Assembly: GCA_041497675.1 (NCBI GenBank) | Contig: JBGQGY010000068.1 | Coordinates: 1-19,583 of the forward strand | From: a bacterium | Lineage (GTDB): Bacteria; Sysuimicrobiota; Sysuimicrobiia; Sysuimicrobiales; Humicultoraceae | Direction: 5' to 3' | DNA: 19,583 bases | In this document: one piece after another, positions 2,795 through 19,248 of the stretch | Layout of the letters: each line of letters opens with the position of its first letter | Position numbering within the stretch: position 1 is the first letter of the stretch | The notes under the pieces: generated by a model | The model's input: only the letters and a program-made list of their open reading frames with translations | Told to the model about the DNA's origin: nothing | Database searches by the model: none | Translations under genes and position numbers: made by a program

Positions 2795-2812
2795 TTTCAG
2801 GCTCGAGCGCGG

Positions 2813-2830
2813 ATCGGCTGCCCGCCCGAT
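2813..2830. promoter_or_regulatory. Palindromic operator box for the USP promoter
   Basis: ATCGGC-TGCCCG-CCCGAT; plus-strand TATCGT (2854-2859) 23 nt downstream. Confidence 0.78.
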
Positions 2831-2898
2831 AGCCGCCCGGCTGGCGCGCGGTCTATCGTGATGTTGGAACCGCCGATCTGTAGGGGGAGGGTTGGATC

Positions 2899-3390
2899 AT
2901 GGATGCCATACAGCGGATGCTCGTCGCGACGGATCTCTCGGACATTTCGACCAGCATCTACAAAACCGCGGCAGATCTTGCCGGGCGGACGAAAGCTGAG
3001 ATGATCGTCGCACACATCGCGAGTCCTGAGGAATACGCGGAGACGCTGCGCGAAGTACATCTGAGCGTCGATGAGTACCTTGAGCGATTTCGGTCCACGA
3101 TCCGCTTCGCCGTCCGCAAGGCGATCGGTGAGACTGTGCCCGTGCAGGCCGAGGTCGTCATGCGCGCGCGAAGCGTGGCCGCCGACCTGCTGGACTTGGC
3201 CACCCGCCTGCACGTAGATCTGATCGTGATGGGCACTCACGGTCGCACCGGTGTGCCCAGAGCCCTCCTGGGCAGCGTCGCCGAAGAAGTTATCCGCCAC
3301 GCCGGGCTCCCGGTCCTTGTCGTGCCGATGTTCCGTCGCCCAGCGAAAGCGGCGGAGGTCGTGGCTGCTCGTAGCGGGGGAGGGATCTAG
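2899..3390 (+). CDS. Universal stress protein (single USP domain)
   Basis: 163 aa; [10 protein letters not shown]-terminus and [27 protein letters not shown] (G-2X-G-9X-GS ATP-binding type); SD GGGGAGG. Confidence 0.93.
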
Positions 3391-3392
3391 CG

Positions 3393-3584
3393 ATGCATGA
3401 GGATCTGCTTGCCCATGCGCTGATGCAGGAGCGTCTCGCTGAGCTCGAGCGGCGGCGCCTGATCCGGGAGGCGGAACGAGCACTGTTTGGGAAAGCCACC
3501 CGGCGGCCGCTGGCCCGGAGAATATTTCCCCGGCGGACAACGGCGCCACGCGGCGCCCGTCCGCCCGAGAAGCGCGCGGCCTGA
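3393..3584 (+). CDS. Small hypothetical protein (63 aa; helical N-half, Arg-rich C-half)
   Basis: ATG 2 nt after the USP stop, preceded by GGGGAGGG; exactly fills the gap to the convergent fhs stop. Confidence 0.6.
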   Translation: MHEDLLAHALMQERLAELERRRLIREAERALFGKATRRPLARRIFPRRTTAPRGARPPEKRAA

Positions 3585-5289: not shown

Positions 5290-5307
5290 ATCCGTCGAAG
5301 GCCCGAT
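5290..5307. promoter_or_regulatory. Operator box for the fhs promoter
   Basis: ATCCGT-CGAAGG-CCCGAT; minus-strand TAGCCT (5267-5262) 22 nt away. Confidence 0.68.
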
Positions 5308-5339: not shown

Positions 5340-5357
5340 ATCAGATATTCGCCCGAT
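5340..5357. promoter_or_regulatory. Operator box for the ybaK-PRODH-capA promoter
   Basis: ATCAGA-TATTCG-CCCGAT; extended -10 TG-T-GATGCT (hexamer 5380-5385) 22 nt downstream. Confidence 0.7.
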
Positions 5358-5422
5358 AGTGGCGGCCCCCGACCCGTGTGATGCTAACAATGGAGCAATG
5401 TAACAGGGAGGAGGGAGATGCC

Positions 5423-6906: not shown

Positions 6907-7953
6907 ATGCGCCTCGCGTTGCTCGGCGATGTCATGTTGGGCCGGCTGGTGAACGAGGCGCTTCGTGCCCTCCCGCCCGCATACCCGTGGGGCGACACCC
7001 TGCCGATCTTGCGCGCGGCGGACGTGGTGATCGCCAACCTGGAATGCGTTCTCGCGGACCACGGCGTGCCGCAGCCCGAGAAGGTATTCACCTTTCGTTC
7101 CGATACGAAGAACGTCGCTGTCCTGAATGCGGCGCGGGTCGCAGCGGTCTCGCTCGCCAACAACCACTCGCTGGACTACGGATGCGAGGCGCTGGTCGAG
7201 TGTCTTTCAGTGCTTCACGGGTGCGGGATCGCCGTAGCTGGGGCCGGTCGATCACTGGACGAGGCCGCCGCGCCCGTGCTGGTGTCTCTCCGCGGTCGCG
7301 CCTCACCGGTGGCTGATGTCCCAGCGCTCGCCCTGGTGGGCTGGACCGACAATGAGCCCGCGTGGGAAGCCGGTCCGCACACGCCCGGCGTATTCTACGT
7401 GTCGCTGACGCCGGACGGTGATGACCCGAGGGAGGAGGCCCTGCTCTCGGTCGTCGCGGCCGCCGCGAATGCGGGGCAGTGTGTCATTGTGTCCGCGCAC
7501 TGGGGGCCGAACTGGGGCGTCGAGCCGCTGGCCGACCATGTCCGGGTTGCGCGTCGGCTGATCGACGCGGGCGCCGACGTGATCTTCGGCCACAGCCCCC
7601 ACGTCTTTCGGGGGGTGGAACTGTATCGCGGAAAACCCATCTTCTATGGCTGCGGGGACTTCATCGACGACTACTACGTCGATGCTGTGGAGCGCAATGA
7701 TCTGTCGTGCGTGTCCGTCCTGGACTATGAAGAGGGGCGCCTGCGGCGGCTCTTGCTGTATCCTACGGTCATTCGGCGGTTCCAGGCTCGCCTGGCCCGT
7801 GGTGCCGATCGTGAGATGTTCCTGGAGCGCGCGGCCCGAGTCTGCCGGGCGTGCGGTACCCGGACCCACCTCGTTCCCGAGGGTCTTGAGATCCCCCCGG
7901 ATATACAGCGTTCGCCCGATGGCGCGGGGACGCGCGGTGCTCTAGCATACTAA
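6907..7953 (+). CDS. CapA/PGA_cap family metallophosphatase-fold protein
   Basis: LGDVMLGR, ANLEC, SLANNHSLDYG, SAHWG, GADVIFGHSPH, YGCGDFIDDY. Confidence 0.92.
   Translation: MRLALLGDVMLGRLVNEALRALPPAYPWGDTLPILRAADVVIANLECVLADHGVPQPEKVFTFRSDTKNVAVLNAARVAAVSLANNHSLDYGCEALVECLSVLHGCGIAVAGAGRSLDEAAAPVLVSLRGRASPVADVPALALVGWTDNEPAWEAGPHTPGVFYVSLTPDGDDPREEALLSVVAAAANAGQCVIVSAHWGPNWGVEPLADHVRVARRLIDAGADVIFGHSPHVFRGVELYRGKPIFYGCGDFIDDYYVDAVERNDLSCVSVLDYEEGRLRRLLLYPTVIRRFQARLARGADREMFLERAARVCRACGTRTHLVPEGLEIPPDIQRSPDGAGTRGALAY
7903..7948 (+). promoter_or_regulatory. Operator box plus -10 inside the 3' end of capA, pointing at the candidate ncRNA
   Basis: ATACAG-CGTTCG-CCCGAT (7903-7920; one perfect arm) and TAGCAT (7943-7948) 22 nt downstream; implied start near 7955-7956. 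Confidence 0.6.
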
Positions 7954-7955
7954 TC

Positions 7956-8127
7956 GAGGAGCGCGGGCGACCGGCGAACGAGCTGAGTCAACGACGCGCA
8001 CGTAGACGCTGAGAGTCAATTGAGGACCTTCGGAGGGTAACTCCGGGGAGTCGTTCACGAACGGCAGGCGTCGGCGGCGTGTTCGGAGACAACGGAAGGG
8101 CCGGAACAGCCACGAATCACGCTCCTC
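7956..8127 (+). ncRNA. Candidate structured RNA (rod-shaped, 6S-like architecture) or structured 5' leader
   Basis: Hand-folded nested pairings: 7956-63/8120-27, 7966-68/8109-11, 7971-75/8100-04, 7994-99/8077-82, 8005-10/8067-72, 8021-23/8055-57, 8025-27/8050-52, 8028-35/8041-48 with a GGUAA loop. G-U pairs favour the + strand; no convincing ORF. Confidence 0.6.
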
Positions 8128-8139
8128 TTAATATTTCCT

Positions 8140-8805
8140 ATGACAACGGCCCCCACCGCCGAGTTCTTCGTCACCATCCCCGTTGGGGAGGCGGGTCTTG
8201 AGGGCCACCTCAGCGTGCCATCCGCGGCCGCCGGCATTGTCTTGTTCGCTCATGGCAGCGGCAGCAGCCGGTGGAGCCCGCGCAACCGATTCGTGGCCGG
8301 CGTATTGCAAGGCGCCGGCCTGGCGACGTTGTTAGTTGATTTGCTGACCCCCGCCGAAGAGACCGTCGATGAGCGAACGCGCCGCCTGCGGTTTGACATT
8401 GGGCTGCTCGCGGGCCGTCTCGGCGCCGCCACCGAGTGGGTGACGGCATCGCCGTCCACACGCCATCTCGCCGTGGGGTACTTTGGGGCCAGCACCGGAT
8501 CTGCGGCGGCGCTGGTGGCGTCGGCGGAACGCCCCGAGGTGGTCCTCGCCATTGTCTCGCGCGGGGGTCGTCCGGACCTGGCCGGCGACGCACTGGAGCG
8601 CGTGCGCGCGCCCACGCTGCTCATCGTTGGGGGGAACGATACCCCGGTCATCGGCCTGAACCAGGACGCCCTTCGGCGCATGACGGTCGAAAAGGAACTG
8701 GCCATCGTGCCGGGCGCGACGCACCTGTTCGAGGAACCCGGGGCGCTGGAAGAGGTGAGCCGTCTGGCCGCCGGCTGGTTCTCGCGATACCTTCCGCAGC
8801 GTTAG
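8140..8805 (+). CDS. Dienelactone hydrolase-like alpha/beta hydrolase
   Basis: 221 aa; LFAHGSGSSRWSPRN, GYFGASTG nucleophile elbow, SRGGRPDLA, PTLLIVGGND, GATHLFEEPG. Confidence 0.9.
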   Translation: MTTAPTAEFFVTIPVGEAGLEGHLSVPSAAAGIVLFAHGSGSSRWSPRNRFVAGVLQGAGLATLLVDLLTPAEETVDERTRRLRFDIGLLAGRLGAATEWVTASPSTRHLAVGYFGASTGSAAALVASAERPEVVLAIVSRGGRPDLAGDALERVRAPTLLIVGGNDTPVIGLNQDALRRMTVEKELAIVPGATHLFEEPGALEEVSRLAAGWFSRYLPQR

Positions 8806-10640: not shown

Positions 10641-10650
10641 AGATGCCCTC

Positions 10651-10683
10651 ACGCGGGGGAGGAAGGACCAACCTCCCCCGCGT
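10651..10683 (-). other. Intercistronic stem-loop between oppA and oppB
   Basis: Perfect 12-bp inverted repeat ACGCGGGGGAGG / CCTCCCCCGCGT with a 9-nt loop and no U-tract; typical position for an mRNA-stabilising hairpin after a binding-protein gene. Confidence 0.8.
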
Positions 10684-10691
10684 CGACTCGG

Positions 10692-12278
10692 TCAGTGTCC
10701 TTCGATCCAGACGTTGCGCAGCAGCGGCGGGCCCGTCGGGTCGGTCGCCAGCCCCTGCACGTAGTTCTTGTAGAGGATCGGCTGGACGTAGAAATAGATG
10801 GGCGCCAGCGGCATGTCCTGGACGAAGATCTTCTCGGCTTCATGGAACGCCTTCATCCGGACAGCCTGGTCCGCCGTCTTGGTGGTCGCGTCGACCAGCC
10901 GGTCATATTCCTTGTTGCTCCACAGGCCTTCGTTGAAGGACGAGCCGGTGATGAACATATCCAGGAAGGTCTTGGGATCGCGGTAGTCGCCGATCCAGCC
11001 CGCGCGTGCGATGTCGAAGTTGTGCTGCGAGCGGGTCTGCAGGTAGACTTTCCATTCCTGGTTGGTCAGGTTGACCTTGACGCCCAGATTCTGGCGCCAC
11101 ATCTCCTGGATGGCCTCGGCAATCGTCTTGTGGCGCTGTGAGGTGTTGTAGAGGATCGTCAGCGTCGGGAAACCCTCGCCGTTGGGGTACCCGGCCTCGG
11201 CCAGCAACTTCTTGGCCAGCGCGGGATCGTACACGGGCATGAGCGGCCCGCCCGCCTGGCGGAAGTCCGTCCCGTTGACGACGATGCCCGACGGCACAAA
11301 CGCGTTCGCCGGTTTTTCCCCGGCGCGGGTAATGCGCGCGGTGATCAGCGTGCGGTTGATCGCAAATGCCAGCGCCCGGCGCACGCGCGCGTCATCGAGC
11401 GGCTTGTGCGTGGTGTTGAACAGATAGTAGTAGGTGCCGATGTACGGCATCGCCTTGAAGTCGCCCGTCTTCAGCAGCCTCGGGATGTCGGCCACGGGCA
11501 CGTTGGACGAGCCGTCGAGCTGGCCGGCTTCGTACTGGACCAGCGCTGTGCTCTCGGCCTCGATCATCGAGAACTCAATCCGCTGGAGCTTGATGCTCTT
11601 GGCATCCCAGTAGTTCGGGTTGCGCTCGAGGACGACGCGGTTCTGGCGGGTCCATTCCTTCATCACGAACGGCCCGTTGCCCACAAATGTCTCGGGCTTA
11701 CCCGCCCAGGCGGGGGTACCCGTCGCCACGGTCTTCGGCACGGGCATCAGCGTATGGAAGGACAGCAGGTCGCCAAAGAAGGGCGTGGGACTCTCCAGGG
11801 TGACGACCAATGTACGGGCGTCCTTGGCGATCACGCCGACTTGTGAGACGTCCTTGATGCTGCCACTGTTGTAGGCTTTGCCGTTCTTGAGATAGTAGAG
11901 CTGATACGCGTAGTCGGCCGCCAGAGCGGGGTCCAGCACCCGCTTCCACGCAAACTCGAAATCCCCGGCCGACACCGGCTGGCCGTTGGACCATTTGGCC
12001 GCCCGCAGGTAGAAGGTCCAGGTCAGCCCGTCCTTCGAGACGTCCCAGCGTTCCGCCATGCCGGGGACGAGGCGCCCCTGCGGATCACGCTGCGTGAGAC
12101 CTTCGTACAGCAGGTAGATCACGGTTGCTTCAGGAATCCCGGTGCTCTTGGCGGGATCCAACGTTTCGAAGTCAGTGCCGACGTTCCAGCGCAACACCTG
12201 GGAAGCCGACGGTTGCGCCCAGGTCGCGGGTGCCAGAGCCATGGTCATGACCAATGCCACGACCACCAGTCTGTGCAT
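10692..12278 (-). CDS. oppA: Oligopeptide ABC transporter substrate-binding protein OppA (SBP family 5)
   Basis: 528 aa; Sec signal without lipobox; TLDP, LYEGL, PGMAERWDVSKDGLTWTFYLR, GNGPF, RAGWIGDY; SD AAGGAGG. Confidence 0.95.
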   Translation of the reverse strand: MHRLVVVALVMTMALAPATWAQPSASQVLRWNVGTDFETLDPAKSTGIPEATVIYLLYEGLTQRDPQGRLVPGMAERWDVSKDGLTWTFYLRAAKWSNGQPVSAGDFEFAWKRVLDPALAADYAYQLYYLKNGKAYNSGSIKDVSQVGVIAKDARTLVVTLESPTPFFGDLLSFHTLMPVPKTVATGTPAWAGKPETFVGNGPFVMKEWTRQNRVVLERNPNYWDAKSIKLQRIEFSMIEAESTALVQYEAGQLDGSSNVPVADIPRLLKTGDFKAMPYIGTYYYLFNTTHKPLDDARVRRALAFAINRTLITARITRAGEKPANAFVPSGIVVNGTDFRQAGGPLMPVYDPALAKKLLAEAGYPNGEGFPTLTILYNTSQRHKTIAEAIQEMWRQNLGVKVNLTNQEWKVYLQTRSQHNFDIARAGWIGDYRDPKTFLDMFITGSSFNEGLWSNKEYDRLVDATTKTADQAVRMKAFHEAEKIFVQDMPLAPIYFYVQPILYKNYVQGLATDPTGPPLLRNVWIEGH

Positions 12279-12356: not shown

Positions 12357-12374
12357 ATCGGGCGCCCGCCCGAT
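12357..12374. promoter_or_regulatory. Operator box for the oppABC promoter
   Basis: A-ATCGGG-CGCCCG-CCCGAT-T (perfect, extended arms); minus-strand TACCAT (12333-12328) 23 nt away. Confidence 0.82.
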
Positions 12375-12805: not shown

Positions 12806-12823
12806 ATCAGGCCGCCGCCTGAT
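12806..12823. promoter_or_regulatory. Operator box for the receiver-domain gene
   Basis: ATCAGG-CCGCCG-CCTGAT (perfect palindromic arms); minus-strand TATAAG (12783-12778) 22 nt away. Confidence 0.75.
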
Positions 12824-13983: not shown

Positions 13984-14041
13984 GGCGGGTTGGGGGCGTG
14001 GGGACTAAGCTGGTCCCAACGATGCTGCGGAGAGGGCTGCC

Positions 14042-14713
14042 ATGTTTGTCCGGGACTGCATGACCCCCGATCCGAGGACGATCGAGCCGGACGCGACACT
14101 CGACGAGGCCCTGAGCCTGATGGGCGCTCTCAAGATACGGCACCTGCCAGTCGTCGATGGGAGCCAGCTGGTCGGGATCGTCACGTGGACCGACCTGATG
14201 GGCGTGGTGCCCATGCCCGGAAGGCGGCGCCGCACCGCCAACGGCGCGGGGCTCCTGGCTAACGCGCAGGTCAAGGACGTGATGACCAAAGACCCGCTGA
14301 CCGTCTCACCCGATGCGCCGGTCGAGATCGCGGCGCGGATGCTGCGGGAGCGAAAGATTGGCTCGCTCCCCGTGATGGAGCGTCACATGCTGGTAGGCAT
14401 CGTGACCGAGAGCGATCTGTTCGACGCGCTGGTGTATCTGTTGGGTGGAGACATCCGGGGTGTGCGAATGTCCCTGGAGCTGCCAAACGGTCTCGCCGAC
14501 GTGACACGGTTTACTGCCGCGCTGGCCGGTCTTACCATCGAGAAGAACGCGGTCGTCGTGACTGTTCGCGTCGACGAAGTATCCCACCGTGGGTACGTGC
14601 GCGTGGCGACCCCATCCCCGCTCGCTCTCACCGAACACCTGGCCACCGCGGGTTTTGAAATCTCCAATTTGCGATTTGACGGCGTCCCGAAGAACGCCCG
14701 GCACACGTCCTGA
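14042..14713 (+). CDS. CBS-pair protein with C-terminal ACT-like domain (AcuB-like)
   Basis: MFVRDCMT, IRHLPVVD..LVGIVT, VKDVMTKDP, KIGSLPV..LVGIVTESDLF, then a ~85-aa alpha/beta tail. Confidence 0.88.
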   Translation: MFVRDCMTPDPRTIEPDATLDEALSLMGALKIRHLPVVDGSQLVGIVTWTDLMGVVPMPGRRRRTANGAGLLANAQVKDVMTKDPLTVSPDAPVEIAARMLRERKIGSLPVMERHMLVGIVTESDLFDALVYLLGGDIRGVRMSLELPNGLADVTRFTAALAGLTIEKNAVVVTVRVDEVSHRGYVRVATPSPLALTEHLATAGFEISNLRFDGVPKNARHTS

Positions 14714-16657: not shown

Positions 16658-17122
16658 CTAGCGGCGGGCTCCCTTCCGAGGGCGCCGGACCGGTACCCTT
16701 CGACGGCCGGCGGCGCGCTTGGGCGGCGCCGTCTCGCGCGGCCCTTCGCGCTCGCCACCCGTGTCGTGGAGGTTGAGGAATACACGGATGATGTCGCTGG
16801 CGCTGACAATGCCGATCACCCGGCCACCCTCGACGATAGGCAGGCGCCGGACCATCTGGTCGAGCATCATGCCCGCGACCTCTTCCACCGACGCGTCCTG
16901 CGCGGCGCTGACCGGATCCGAGGTCATGATGTCGGTCACCCTCTCGCCGACCCGGCCTACCAGGTCAACCAGGCTGACCATTCCCACCAGCTGGCCGGCG
17001 GCGTCCACGACCGGCGCGCCGTGGATCCGGTACCGTGTCAGGAGCTCGCTCGTCTCAGCCACCGTCATGTCCGGTACCACTGAGATGACGTCCCGTGTCA
17101 TGATGTCTGCGGCCGTCAACAT
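16658..17122 (-). CDS. CBS-pair protein with Arg-rich tail
   Basis: Real start ATG 17122 (MLTAADIMTRDV); IHGAPVVD..LVGMVS, VRRLPIV..VIGIVSASD; 154 aa. The longer ORF call overlaps the USP gene. Confidence 0.88.
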   Translation of the reverse strand: MLTAADIMTRDVISVVPDMTVAETSELLTRYRIHGAPVVDAAGQLVGMVSLVDLVGRVGERVTDIMTSDPVSAAQDASVEEVAGMMLDQMVRRLPIVEGGRVIGIVSASDIIRVFLNLHDTGGEREGPRETAPPKRAAGRRRVPVRRPRKGARR

Positions 17123-17196
17123 CGGCGTCGCCCCCGGTGCGTCGTTTTGTAGATCCGAAACCCTACTCAGCGTAGCCCCGCGACGTGGACCGGGCC

Positions 17197-17214
17197 ATCG
17201 GTCGAGTGCCTGAT
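17197..17214. promoter_or_regulatory. Single operator box centred between divergent CBS/ATPase and USP/DASS promoters
   Basis: ATCGGT-CGAGTG-CCTGAT; minus TACGCT (17174-17169) and plus TG-G-CATCAT (17237-17242) each 22 nt from the box. Confidence 0.78.
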
Positions 17215-17272
17215 TCCAGCGTCTGGGCGTTGGTGGCATCATAGCATTGGAGATCACAGGGGGTGAGTATGG

Positions 17273-17728
17273 ATGGCAACCGAGATCAAGCGAATTCTGG
17301 TTCCTACCGATTTCTCGCCCGGCGCGGAGCCGGCCCTCGCGTGGGCGGCCAGGCTTGCCGACTGCTTCAATGCACAGATTGTCCTTCTGCACGTCGTCGA
17401 CGTCCGGCTCGCGGCGCTGGCGGGGCTGCCGCCTGACATGGCCGCGATGCCCGCCGTCGACGAATTGGTCCAGGGCGCGCGCACCGAGGCCGACGAGCAG
17501 ATGAAGCGGGTCGCCGCGCGCTTCCCGCGGGCCACCACGTTGGTCAAAGAGGGCTCGGCGCGCACCGTGATCCTCGAGGTCGCGAAGGACCTCGATGTCG
17601 ATCTCATCGTGATGGGCACGCACGGACGCACAGGTTTTGCGCACGTGTTCTTCGGGAGCGTGGCCGAGCACATCGTGCGGCATAGCCGCATTCCGGTGCT
17701 GACGGCGCGCCAGGAGGAAACATCGTAG
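17273..17728 (+). CDS. Universal stress protein (single USP domain)
   Basis: KRILVPTDFS and [29 protein letters not shown]; 151 aa. Confidence 0.95.
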   Translation: MATEIKRILVPTDFSPGAEPALAWAARLADCFNAQIVLLHVVDVRLAALAGLPPDMAAMPAVDELVQGARTEADEQMKRVAARFPRATTLVKEGSARTVILEVAKDLDVDLIVMGTHGRTGFAHVFFGSVAEHIVRHSRIPVLTARQEETS

Positions 17729-19248
17729 GCGGTTCCGTCGCTCATGTCGACGGGGGCGCCTACGACAGGGCCACTCTGAAAGGCCTGATCGGCCTGGCGT
17801 TAGGGCCGCTGCTGTTTGCCGTTCTCCTGGTACTGCCGCTGGATGGGCTCGCCCCGCGGGCACACCGTCTGGCCGCGGTCTTCACGTGGGCCGTCGTCTA
17901 TTGGGTGACCGAGGCGGTGCCGGTGCCGGTGACCGCGGTGCTGGCGTCCGTGCTCTCCGTCCTGCTGGGGATCGCGCCGGCGCAGGCCGTCCTGGCGCCC
18001 TACGGCGATCCCATCATCTTCCTGTTCATTGGGTCGTTCATGCTTGCGGCCGCGTTTCAGGAAACGGGGCTGGATCGCCGCGTCGCGTTTACGCTGCTGC
18101 GGTTTCCCTGGACGACGCGCACCCCTACACGCGTGCTGGCCACGCTGGGGGTAATCACATGGGCGATGTCCTTGTGGATGAGCAATACGGCCACGACGGC
18201 GATCATGCTGCCTGTCGGCCTCGGCATCCTCAAGAGTATGGGCGAGACACCGTCGCCGGGGACACCGCGGAACGCGGGCCGCGGTGGCTTCTCCGTTGCG
18301 CTGTTGTTGATGCTGACGTGGGCGTCCTCGACCGGAGGCATCGGAACGCCGGTGGGCTCACCACCGAACCTGATCGCCATCTCGATGCTCCGCGAATTGG
18401 CCGGCCGGCGGGTGACGTTCTTCGACTGGATGTCCGTCGCGCTCCCGATGGCCCTCCTGATGCTGGGGCTGTGCTGGGTGATCCTCACGCTGCGGTACGG
18501 CGGGCCGACCCGGTCCGGCGTGGACCTGCAGCGCCACGTGGCCGCCGAGCGCGCACGACTGGGGCCGTGGCGCCGGGGCGAGGCAAACGTGGCCGCGGTG
18601 TTCGTGCTGGCGGTCATCCTCTGGGTCTTGCCCGGTGCGACCGCGATGATCTCGCCACAGGCAACGCTGCCACGCTTCTTCGAACGTCATCTGCCCGAAG
18701 CGATTGTGGCGTTGGGCGCCGCGGTCTTGCTGTTTCTGTTGCCGACCGATCTGCGTCGCGGCAAGTTCACGCTGACCTGGCGGGGGGCTGTTGGCATCGA
18801 TTGGGGCACGATCCTGCTCTTCGGCGGGGGGCTGTCGCTTGGCAAACTGATGTTTGAGACGAAACTCGCCGAAGCCGTTGGGACAGCAGTGGTGCGCGCC
18901 GCGGGCGCCGACAGCGTGTGGGCGCTGACCGCGGTGGCGATCGTGTTGGGCATCGTGCTCTCGGAGACCTCATCCAACACCGCGTCGGCGAGCATGCTAG
19001 TCCCGACGATCATCGCCGTCGCCGCGGGGAGCGCCATGAATCCCATCCCGCCGGTGCTCGGCGCGACGCTGGGCGCGAGCTTTGGCTTCATGCTACCGGT
19101 GTCGACGCCACCCAACGCGATCGTCTATGGCTCGGGGTTGGTCCCGTTGAAAGAGATGATGACGTCGGGGATCTGGCTCGACGTCACCGGTGGGATCCTA
19201 ATCTGGGTGGGGCTCAGGGTGCTGTGCCCGCTGCTCGGCCTCGCGTGA
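17722..19248 (+). CDS. DASS/SLC13 family di/tricarboxylate or sulfate transporter; start unresolved
   Basis: WMSNTATTAIMLP and TSSNTASA (two SNT motifs), GTPVGSPPN, FMLPVSTPPNAIV. The frame is open from 17686 and encodes family-typical GLALGPLLF...AHRLAAVF upstream of GTG 17905; start 17722 (ATC after AGGAGG) is tentative. Confidence 0.88.
   Translation: MVGGSVAHVDGGAYDRATLKGLIGLALGPLLFAVLLVLPLDGLAPRAHRLAAVFTWAVVYWVTEAVPVPVTAVLASVLSVLLGIAPAQAVLAPYGDPIIFLFIGSFMLAAAFQETGLDRRVAFTLLRFPWTTRTPTRVLATLGVITWAMSLWMSNTATTAIMLPVGLGILKSMGETPSPGTPRNAGRGGFSVALLLMLTWASSTGGIGTPVGSPPNLIAISMLRELAGRRVTFFDWMSVALPMALLMLGLCWVILTLRYGGPTRSGVDLQRHVAAERARLGPWRRGEANVAAVFVLAVILWVLPGATAMISPQATLPRFFERHLPEAIVALGAAVLLFLLPTDLRRGKFTLTWRGAVGIDWGTILLFGGGLSLGKLMFETKLAEAVGTAVVRAAGADSVWALTAVAIVLGIVLSETSSNTASASMLVPTIIAVAAGSAMNPIPPVLGATLGASFGFMLPVSTPPNAIVYGSGLVPLKEMMTSGIWLDVTGGILIWVGLRVLCPLLGLA

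Follow-up and report, generated by a model that had tools for sequence, protein, structure and literature searches.

The Gap Between capA and the Hydrolase Gene

Two forward-strand genes of the window (the whole 19,583-nt stretch of DNA analysed here; 66% G+C), a CapA-like gene and a dienelactone-hydrolase-family gene, are separated by a gap of 186 nt (capA stop codon at 7951–7953, hydrolase ATG at 8140), and the question raised by this locus is what that gap holds. An earlier, sequence-only reading described it as one continuous hairpin closed by GAGGAGCG/CGCUCCUC, with a GGUAA apical loop and a large purine-rich internal bubble, expressed from a promoter of its own as a 6S-like or new stress-induced small RNA. 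The length of the gap agrees with the sequence and the open reading frame (ORF) coordinates, and positions 7956–8127 do fold without branching into a rod with the described ends and loop (Table 1). The closing stem comprises 8 pairs, 6 of them G-C (−12.8 kcal/mol). The 56 unpaired bases of the rod (30 A, 16 G, 6 C, 4 U) are mostly purines (46/56). We conclude that 7956–8127 is a real, strand-specific rod that has no known family and is preceded by a predicted promoter.

The bubble is the one part of the described structure that did not hold. The segment 7976–7991 / 8086–8099 is predicted to be mostly paired, with a cost of +6.2 kcal/mol to open it fully. What had been taken for a bubble is predicted as three small loops (GAACGAG/AAGG, A/AA, and AA/GA) split by two 3-bp helices, in which the unpaired probability is about 0.1 (7983–7985) and below 0.1 (7987–7989).

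The rod is tightly flanked. The capA stop codon lies 3 nt 5′ of it, the last 51 nt of capA contain both a regulon box and a −10-like hexamer, and 12 nt separate its 3′ end from the hydrolase AUG on the same strand. Only 22 AT-rich islands occur in the window; they include the linker that joins the rod to the AUG, as well as 7943–7954, immediately left of the rod.

Table 1. Coordinates of the rod, its flanking genes, and the regulon boxes in the window.
Feature	Position	Strand	Remarks
PGA_cap (CapA-like) gene	6907–7953	+	Pfam PGA_cap, E 1.4e-70
Regulon box ATACAGCGTTCGCCCGAT	7903–7920	+	within last capA codons
−10-like hexamer TAGCAT	7943–7948	+	22 nt 3′ of box
Unbranched rod, 172 nt	7956–8127	+	58 pairs: 41 G-C, 10 A-U, 7 G-U
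Closing stem, 5′ arm GAGGAGCG	7956–7963	+	partner 8120–8127
Purine-rich, weakly paired segment, 5′ side	7976–7991	+	partner side 8086–8099
Apical loop GGUAA on 8-bp stem	8036–8040	+	computed fold
Closing stem, 3′ arm CGCUCCUC	8120–8127	+	computed fold
AU-rich linker UUAAUAUUUCCU, rod to AUG	8128–8139	+	without Shine-Dalgarno
Dienelactone-hydrolase-family gene	8140–8805	+	Pfam DLH, 27 bits vs. cut-off 21
Box	847–864	−	faces molybdopterin oxidoreductase
Box	2777–2794	−	faces malic enzyme; perfect palindrome
Box	2813–2830	+	faces USP gene 2899–3390
Box	5290–5307	−	faces formate-THF ligase
Box	5340–5357	+	faces ybaK-proDH-capA
Box	12357–12374	−	faces opp binding protein; perfect palindrome
Box	12806–12823	+	TACCAT; no identified gene ahead, antisense into multicopper oxidase ORF
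Box	17197–17214	+	faces USP gene 17273–17728
Box	17197–17214	−	TACGCT; without obvious target

Stability and Shape of the Fold

With a minimum free energy (MFE) of −80.5 kcal/mol, the rod was more stable than every one of 200 dinucleotide shuffles (z −4.0) and every one of a second set of 500 (z −4.5). Of the 500 shuffles, 3 were unbranched and none was both unbranched and closed at its ends. The ensemble diversity was 9.4, compared to 38.3 ± 14.6 in the shuffles, with values as low in 4 of the 500. The signal is also strand-specific, given that the reverse complement folds far less stably (−63.8 kcal/mol, z −1.85, with 8/200 shuffles equally stable).

These values need to be read against the remainder of the window. 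Raw MFE does not discriminate, with 107 of 904 windows of 172 nt as low as the rod, and when the window was scanned end to end with z-scored RNALfold, several coding-region segments came out at about −4 to −5. Judged by its z-score only, the rod therefore does not stand out. Among the 407 local structures of at least 120 nt, 22 were unbranched; the rod was the best of these, and the runner-up reached z −3.35.

A further strongly folding segment was noted on the minus strand at 681–837 (z −4.48; no Rfam match). A gap of 189 nt (766–954) lies upstream of a TAT-signal molybdopterin oxidoreductase gene on the minus strand.

A Shared Palindrome Upstream of the Rod

The box and the −10-like hexamer upstream of the rod are present at the positions given by the sequence-only reading (7903 and 7943). 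The box belongs to a set of 12 matches in the window (3.17 ± 1.80 expected) to the 18-bp palindrome ATCGGGC-N4-GCCCGAT at up to three mismatches, a count reached by 0/200 shuffles, and two of the copies are perfect (2777 and 12357). The 7903 site is of the weakest kind of match, its right half being perfect and its left half carrying all three mismatches. A NANNNT hexamer at a spacer of 22 or 23 nt past the box was seen at 10 of the 24 oriented sites, compared to 1.47 expected (binomial P 6.5e-7), and TANNNT at 6 (0.12 expected); most of the ten box-plus-hexamer sites point at a gene start. The layout seen here, box-N22-TAGCAT, recurs before at least eight other genes or operons, supporting the earlier claim of a regulon-type promoter for the rod. 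It predicts a start at C7955/G7956, 7–8 nt 3′ of TAGCAT, which would place the first transcribed base at, or next to, the first base of the closing stem, as had been proposed. This layout would put the box over the −35 region, an arrangement comparable to that of class II activators.

Together, the palindrome sites look like a dense stress regulon, and the genes of the island include those for universal stress (USP), CBS-domain, and CapA-like proteins, the hydrolase, formate-THF ligase, malic enzyme, and a molybdoenzyme. No regulator of the palindrome regulon was found among the genes of the window. We regard this regulon as the more solid by-product of the analysis: an 18-bp palindrome that covers the −35 region at no fewer than nine promoters within 19.6 kb. 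Rex operators share the 7-4-7 geometry of the palindrome and differ from it in sequence. The palindrome is distinct from the DosR box, and the canonical DosR pattern (GGGAC-N4-GTCCC) is not enriched in the window (13 matches at up to two mismatches vs. 21.9 expected). "DosR regulon" is thus an analogy and not an identification. Generic consensus scans for sigma-70 promoters and terminators gave no match in 7600–8400 and were at chance across the whole window (sigma-70, 1 vs. 2.1; terminators, 14 vs. 9.2 ± 3.2).

Several further observations concern the genes and sites of this island. An inverted repeat, GGGGAC-N7-GTCCC (about 14000–14017), precedes the CBS-domain gene at 14042; it combines DosR-like half-sites with a non-canonical spacing and may be the site of a second regulator. 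The two USP genes (2899–3390 and 17273–17728, both on the plus strand; Pfam Usp, E 4e-27 and 5e-37) are hidden under longer minus-strand ORFs (2797–3549 and 16658–17863), which a longest-ORF reading would favour, and the true minus-strand CBS gene covers only about 16658–17200. The ybaK-like ORF probably starts downstream of its listed GTG at 5378; its start region contains the hexamer of the box promoter, GATGCT (5380–5385), and a strong Shine-Dalgarno (SD) sequence, GGGAGGAGGGAG, at about 5406–5417.

Homologous Loci, RNA Families, and Coding Potential

The hydrolase returned 8000 homologues (best 94% identity), with a start column common to the close ones; the closest, at 75–94% identity, are of metagenomic origin. 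Named homologues at ~70% identity come from Rubrobacteraceae and other Actinomycetota metagenome-assembled genomes (MAGs), and on this basis the lineage was read as probably Actinomycetota. In one scan of the hydrolase protein against genome contigs, 18 loci from other phyla were obtained (51–67% identity), and no likeness to the rod was seen upstream of these by eye, blastn-short, or nhmmer. A single-sequence covariance model of the rod run on the same 18 loci gave 7 non-self matches (11.7–13.9 bits, E 3.2–9), and the element was not found among them. With blastn, plasmids gave two short chance matches and phages none.

We did note that homologues of the hydrolase are often named as, or fused with, a phosphoribosyltransferase. 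In several loci (L008, L009, L012-L014, L016, and L018), phosphoribosyltransferase-like coding sequence, as read by eye, runs gaplessly into the hydrolase match. At the 8140–8805 locus this partner is absent and the rod is in the upstream position.

A covariance-model search against Rfam, which the earlier reading had suggested for 6S and riboswitch models, gave 0 matches at gathering scores across the whole window. At E ≤ 10 with lax filters, neither 6S nor Ms1 was found in 7800–8300 or in 7950–8135. The sole match on the wider interval was serC-leader (14 nt, 11.3 bits), which we attribute to chance. On the narrower interval it was the SAH riboswitch (RF01057) at 11.8 bits and E 5.8, below its gathering score of 37; this match, to CGAGGAGCGC, is likewise due to chance, with 5/7 P1 pairs flagged as non-canonical.

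Coding content was likewise considered. A minus-strand ORF at 7988–8113 (41 aa, with GAGGAG-N8-GTG upstream) has no homologue. An antisense ORF at 8055–8237 (60 aa) has six matches, all uninformative partial stretches of proteins of 195–6238 aa, of which four exceed 1,100 aa. When the gap was translated from stop to stop, none of the six products had a Pfam match at E ≤ 1. The hydrolase frame is open upstream from 8041, and the extension contains no ATG, GTG, or TTG.

Candidate Leader of the Hydrolase mRNA

Our tentative preference, at somewhat less than even odds, is that the rod forms the 5′-terminal structured leader of the hydrolase mRNA within a stress-regulon transcript. The rod is on the hydrolase strand and ends 12 nt before an AUG whose position is shared by close homologues, which argues for this arrangement. 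Folding longer transcripts from the predicted start points the same way: in 7956–8200 and 7956–8300 the closing stem persists (pair probability 0.92–1.0), and 8128–8142 is unpaired in transcripts from 7956, with an unpaired probability of at least 0.9 for the linker. The specificity for the plus strand, seen in the better fold, the 7 G-U pairs, and the A/G-rich loops, also favours a leader, as does the lack of any ORF in the gap with a family or homologue.

The 7903 box marks the only box-type promoter upstream of the hydrolase gene, which is likely the cargo of the rod transcript. The predicted leader would be 184 nt, of which 172 nt are the rod, and about 12 nt without it. Leaders at four other box promoters (5290-, 2777-, 12357-, and 847-) are estimated at roughly 23–47 nt, and clear SD sequences of the GGAGG type precede the genes for malic enzyme, the opp binding protein, and formate-THF ligase. 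Rv0571c and Rv0574c of M. tuberculosis, presumably the counterparts of the DLH-like and CapA-like genes here, offer an analogy. Each of the two has its own DevR-dependent promoter, according to the accessible part of the source (PMC3177182).

The leader would work as follows. A transcription factor would bind the 18-bp palindrome over the −35 region, as the repeated box-N22/23-hexamer layout suggests, and transcription would begin at about G7956. The first 172 nt are then predicted to zip into the rod without a 5′ overhang, and, by analogy, such a 5′ hairpin would protect the RNA from 5′-end-dependent decay. At the foot of the rod, 8 bp followed by UUAAUAUUU may halt some polymerases, and this possible partial termination at the U-rich foot would release an RNA of about 175–185 nt. 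Read-through would yield the hydrolase mRNA, presumably translated from an SD-less AUG within an AU-rich stretch that is computed to be unpaired. The element itself may have originated as a palindromic insertion between a promoter and a short-leader gene.

Four observations count against the leader. An SD-less hydrolase gene with TAATAT 5 nt before its ATG is arranged like a leaderless gene that has a promoter to itself; 6 U in 9 nt come after the foot of the rod, as in a terminator; the z-score of the rod is equalled by several coding segments of the window; and the regions upstream of the 18 hydrolase-homologue loci are unrelated.

Alternative Interpretations

The first two of these observations lead to the alternative that comes closest, which we consider somewhat unlikely: a free, stress-induced small RNA of about 175–185 nt, which would run from ~7956 to the U-rich tract, with a hydrolase mRNA that would be leaderless from TAATAT (8129–8134), a −10-like hexamer that could serve the gene in place of TAGCAT. 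The rod does take up the whole distance between the predicted +1 and a stem with UUAAUAUUU after it, the hydrolase gene has no SD, and both flanks of the rod are among the few AT-rich islands of the window. There is also a regulon precedent in the DosR-activated DrrS/MTS1338, as described in the accessible part of a review (PMC8628891). Against this, the U tract UUAAUAUUU is interrupted, and the terminator scan lists nothing here, because its loop limit of 8 excludes long hairpins. No palindrome box lies at the right distance before TAATAT (none is listed between 7920 and 12357), no Rfam family was matched, and the preponderance of purines among the unpaired bases leaves almost no single-stranded C/U-rich seed. 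We prefer the leader over the free RNA because the hydrolase gene would otherwise have no regulon box and because the rod is nearly devoid of a single-stranded pyrimidine seed; the sequence alone does not separate a leader from a free RNA accompanied by a leaderless hydrolase mRNA.

An old insertion resembling a miniature inverted-repeat transposable element (MITE) is a fair rival, albeit an unlikely one. The rod would then be a palindrome, or the remnant of one, that landed behind the regulon promoter, in front of a hydrolase gene with a short leader, and is now transcribed with little or no selected function. It does end in an 8-bp terminal inverted repeat (GAGGAGCG/CGCTCCTC) between symmetric flanks, TAAT-N1 and N1-TAAT (7951–7954 and 8129–8132), and with the rod taken out the leader would shrink to about 12 nt and lack an SD, as suits a short-leader gene. 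However, a 4-nt repeat in AT-rich flanks is weak evidence, with chance still a possible source, and a single copy is seen in the 19.6-kb window and none in the 18 loci fetched. No transposase is encoded nearby, the fold is clearly better on the plus strand, and the arms are identical at only 53 of 91 aligned columns (about 58%) at the DNA level. Of the arm mismatch columns, 5 give G-U and 2 give A-C on the plus strand, a hint of selection at the RNA level that is not significant. A search of the literature for actinobacterial MITEs with hairpins returned no paper.

It is quite improbable that the rod serves the ybaK-proDH-capA operon as a terminator or 3′ stabiliser, or that it is a hairpin devoid of any function. 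Its position directly after the capA stop codon would suit such a role, coding segments of the window have similar z-scores, and the foot, a G-C-rich 8-bp stem (−12.8 kcal/mol) followed by UUAAUAUUU, has terminator features of a kind that a consensus scan with a loop limit of 8 would pass over. The opp operon of the window also has an intercistronic hairpin (10653–10691). On the other side, a length of 172 nt is far above that of usual terminators, the predicted regulon promoter is placed exactly at the 5′ end of the rod, and an end-closed rod arose in 0/500 shuffles.

The opp hairpin lies in the gap between the binding-protein gene and the first permease gene on the minus strand. It is a perfect, G+C-rich hairpin of 10 bp (GCGGGGGAGG...CCTCCCCCGC; RNALfold z −4.27 at 10645–10693) and is probably an intercistronic stabiliser or attenuator.

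Very improbable is a 6S/Ms1-like RNA whose bubble would mimic an open promoter and bind RNA polymerase: the size, the form of a rod, and a weak, purine-rich stretch that separates the closing stem from the long apical stem are in keeping with it, and canonical 6S is absent from most Actinobacteria while Ms1 homologues are elusive by sequence (accessible part of PMC9130861), but there is no match even at E ≤ 10, the bubble is predicted to be paired (+6.2 kcal/mol to open), the closing stem is short (on each side the closing part covers no more than about 20 nt), a gene starts 12 nt after the rod, and both its size (172 nt) and its neighbours (PGA_cap and DLH) are a misfit for Ms1. The same very low probability covers a new class of RNA-polymerase-binding rod RNA from this poorly sampled lineage, which would resemble 6S and Ms1 in function but not in sequence, be switched on by a dormancy-type regulon, and be freed by termination at the foot of the rod.

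What the rod means depends on whether it has been selected. If so, it would be a structured leader or small RNA without an Rfam family, controlled by a stress regulon in a lineage known mostly from soil metagenomes, and it would show how expression of an SD-less gene proceeds behind a very stable 5′ hairpin. Should it be no more than a palindrome inserted long ago, the finding is an ordinary one.

Comparison with Known Systems

For the leader, the nearest known arrangement is the 5′-terminal stabiliser hairpin of mRNAs such as the ompA leader. These are short hairpins in leaders with a normal SD. Like the rod, they have a stem ahead of the coding region that starts at +1 or beside it and leaves no 5′ overhang; the rod differs in its length of 172 nt and in the SD-less, AU-rich start region that follows it. 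As an insertion, the rod would resemble the enterobacterial ERIC, Neisseria Correia, and Bacillus bcr1 elements, which are of similar size and form a hairpin over their whole length. The rod and these elements alike are imperfect palindromes of 100–170 bp with short inverted ends, located in intergenic gaps that are transcribed and bordered by AT-rich repeats. Those elements occur in many copies per genome, however, whereas one copy was seen here in 19.6 kb, with arms about 58% identical.

As a regulon-controlled small RNA, the rod recalls DrrS/MTS1338 of M. tuberculosis in its dormancy-type regulon promoter and in its island, which encodes USP, CBS, CapA-like, and hydrolase proteins. The two showed no relation by sequence or in Rfam, and the box here, ATCGGGC-N4-GCCCGAT, differs from the DosR box. 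DrrS is also shorter (about 108 nt), is cut from a precursor of >400 nt, and adjoins Rv1733c, going by the accessible part of the review (PMC8628891).

The likeness to 6S RNA (RF00013) and Ms1, which had suggested the 6S-like label in the sequence-only reading, is one of form: all are rods in a similar size class whose helices are irregular and which include a weak, purine-rich stretch, and the rod is plausibly stress-induced. That label is not supported, given the missing Rfam match to 6S or Ms1, the bubble predicted to be closed, and gene neighbours that differ from those of Ms1. The rod further differs from both RNAs in its short closing stem and in its place directly before a gene. For Ms1, sizes of 250 and 300 nt are given in the accessible part of the review (PMC8628891). 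In most Actinobacteria Ms1 takes the place of 6S, and its locus adjoins a HAD-IB hydrolase gene, as far as the accessible part of PMC9130861 goes, whereas the rod described here lies between PGA_cap and DLH genes.
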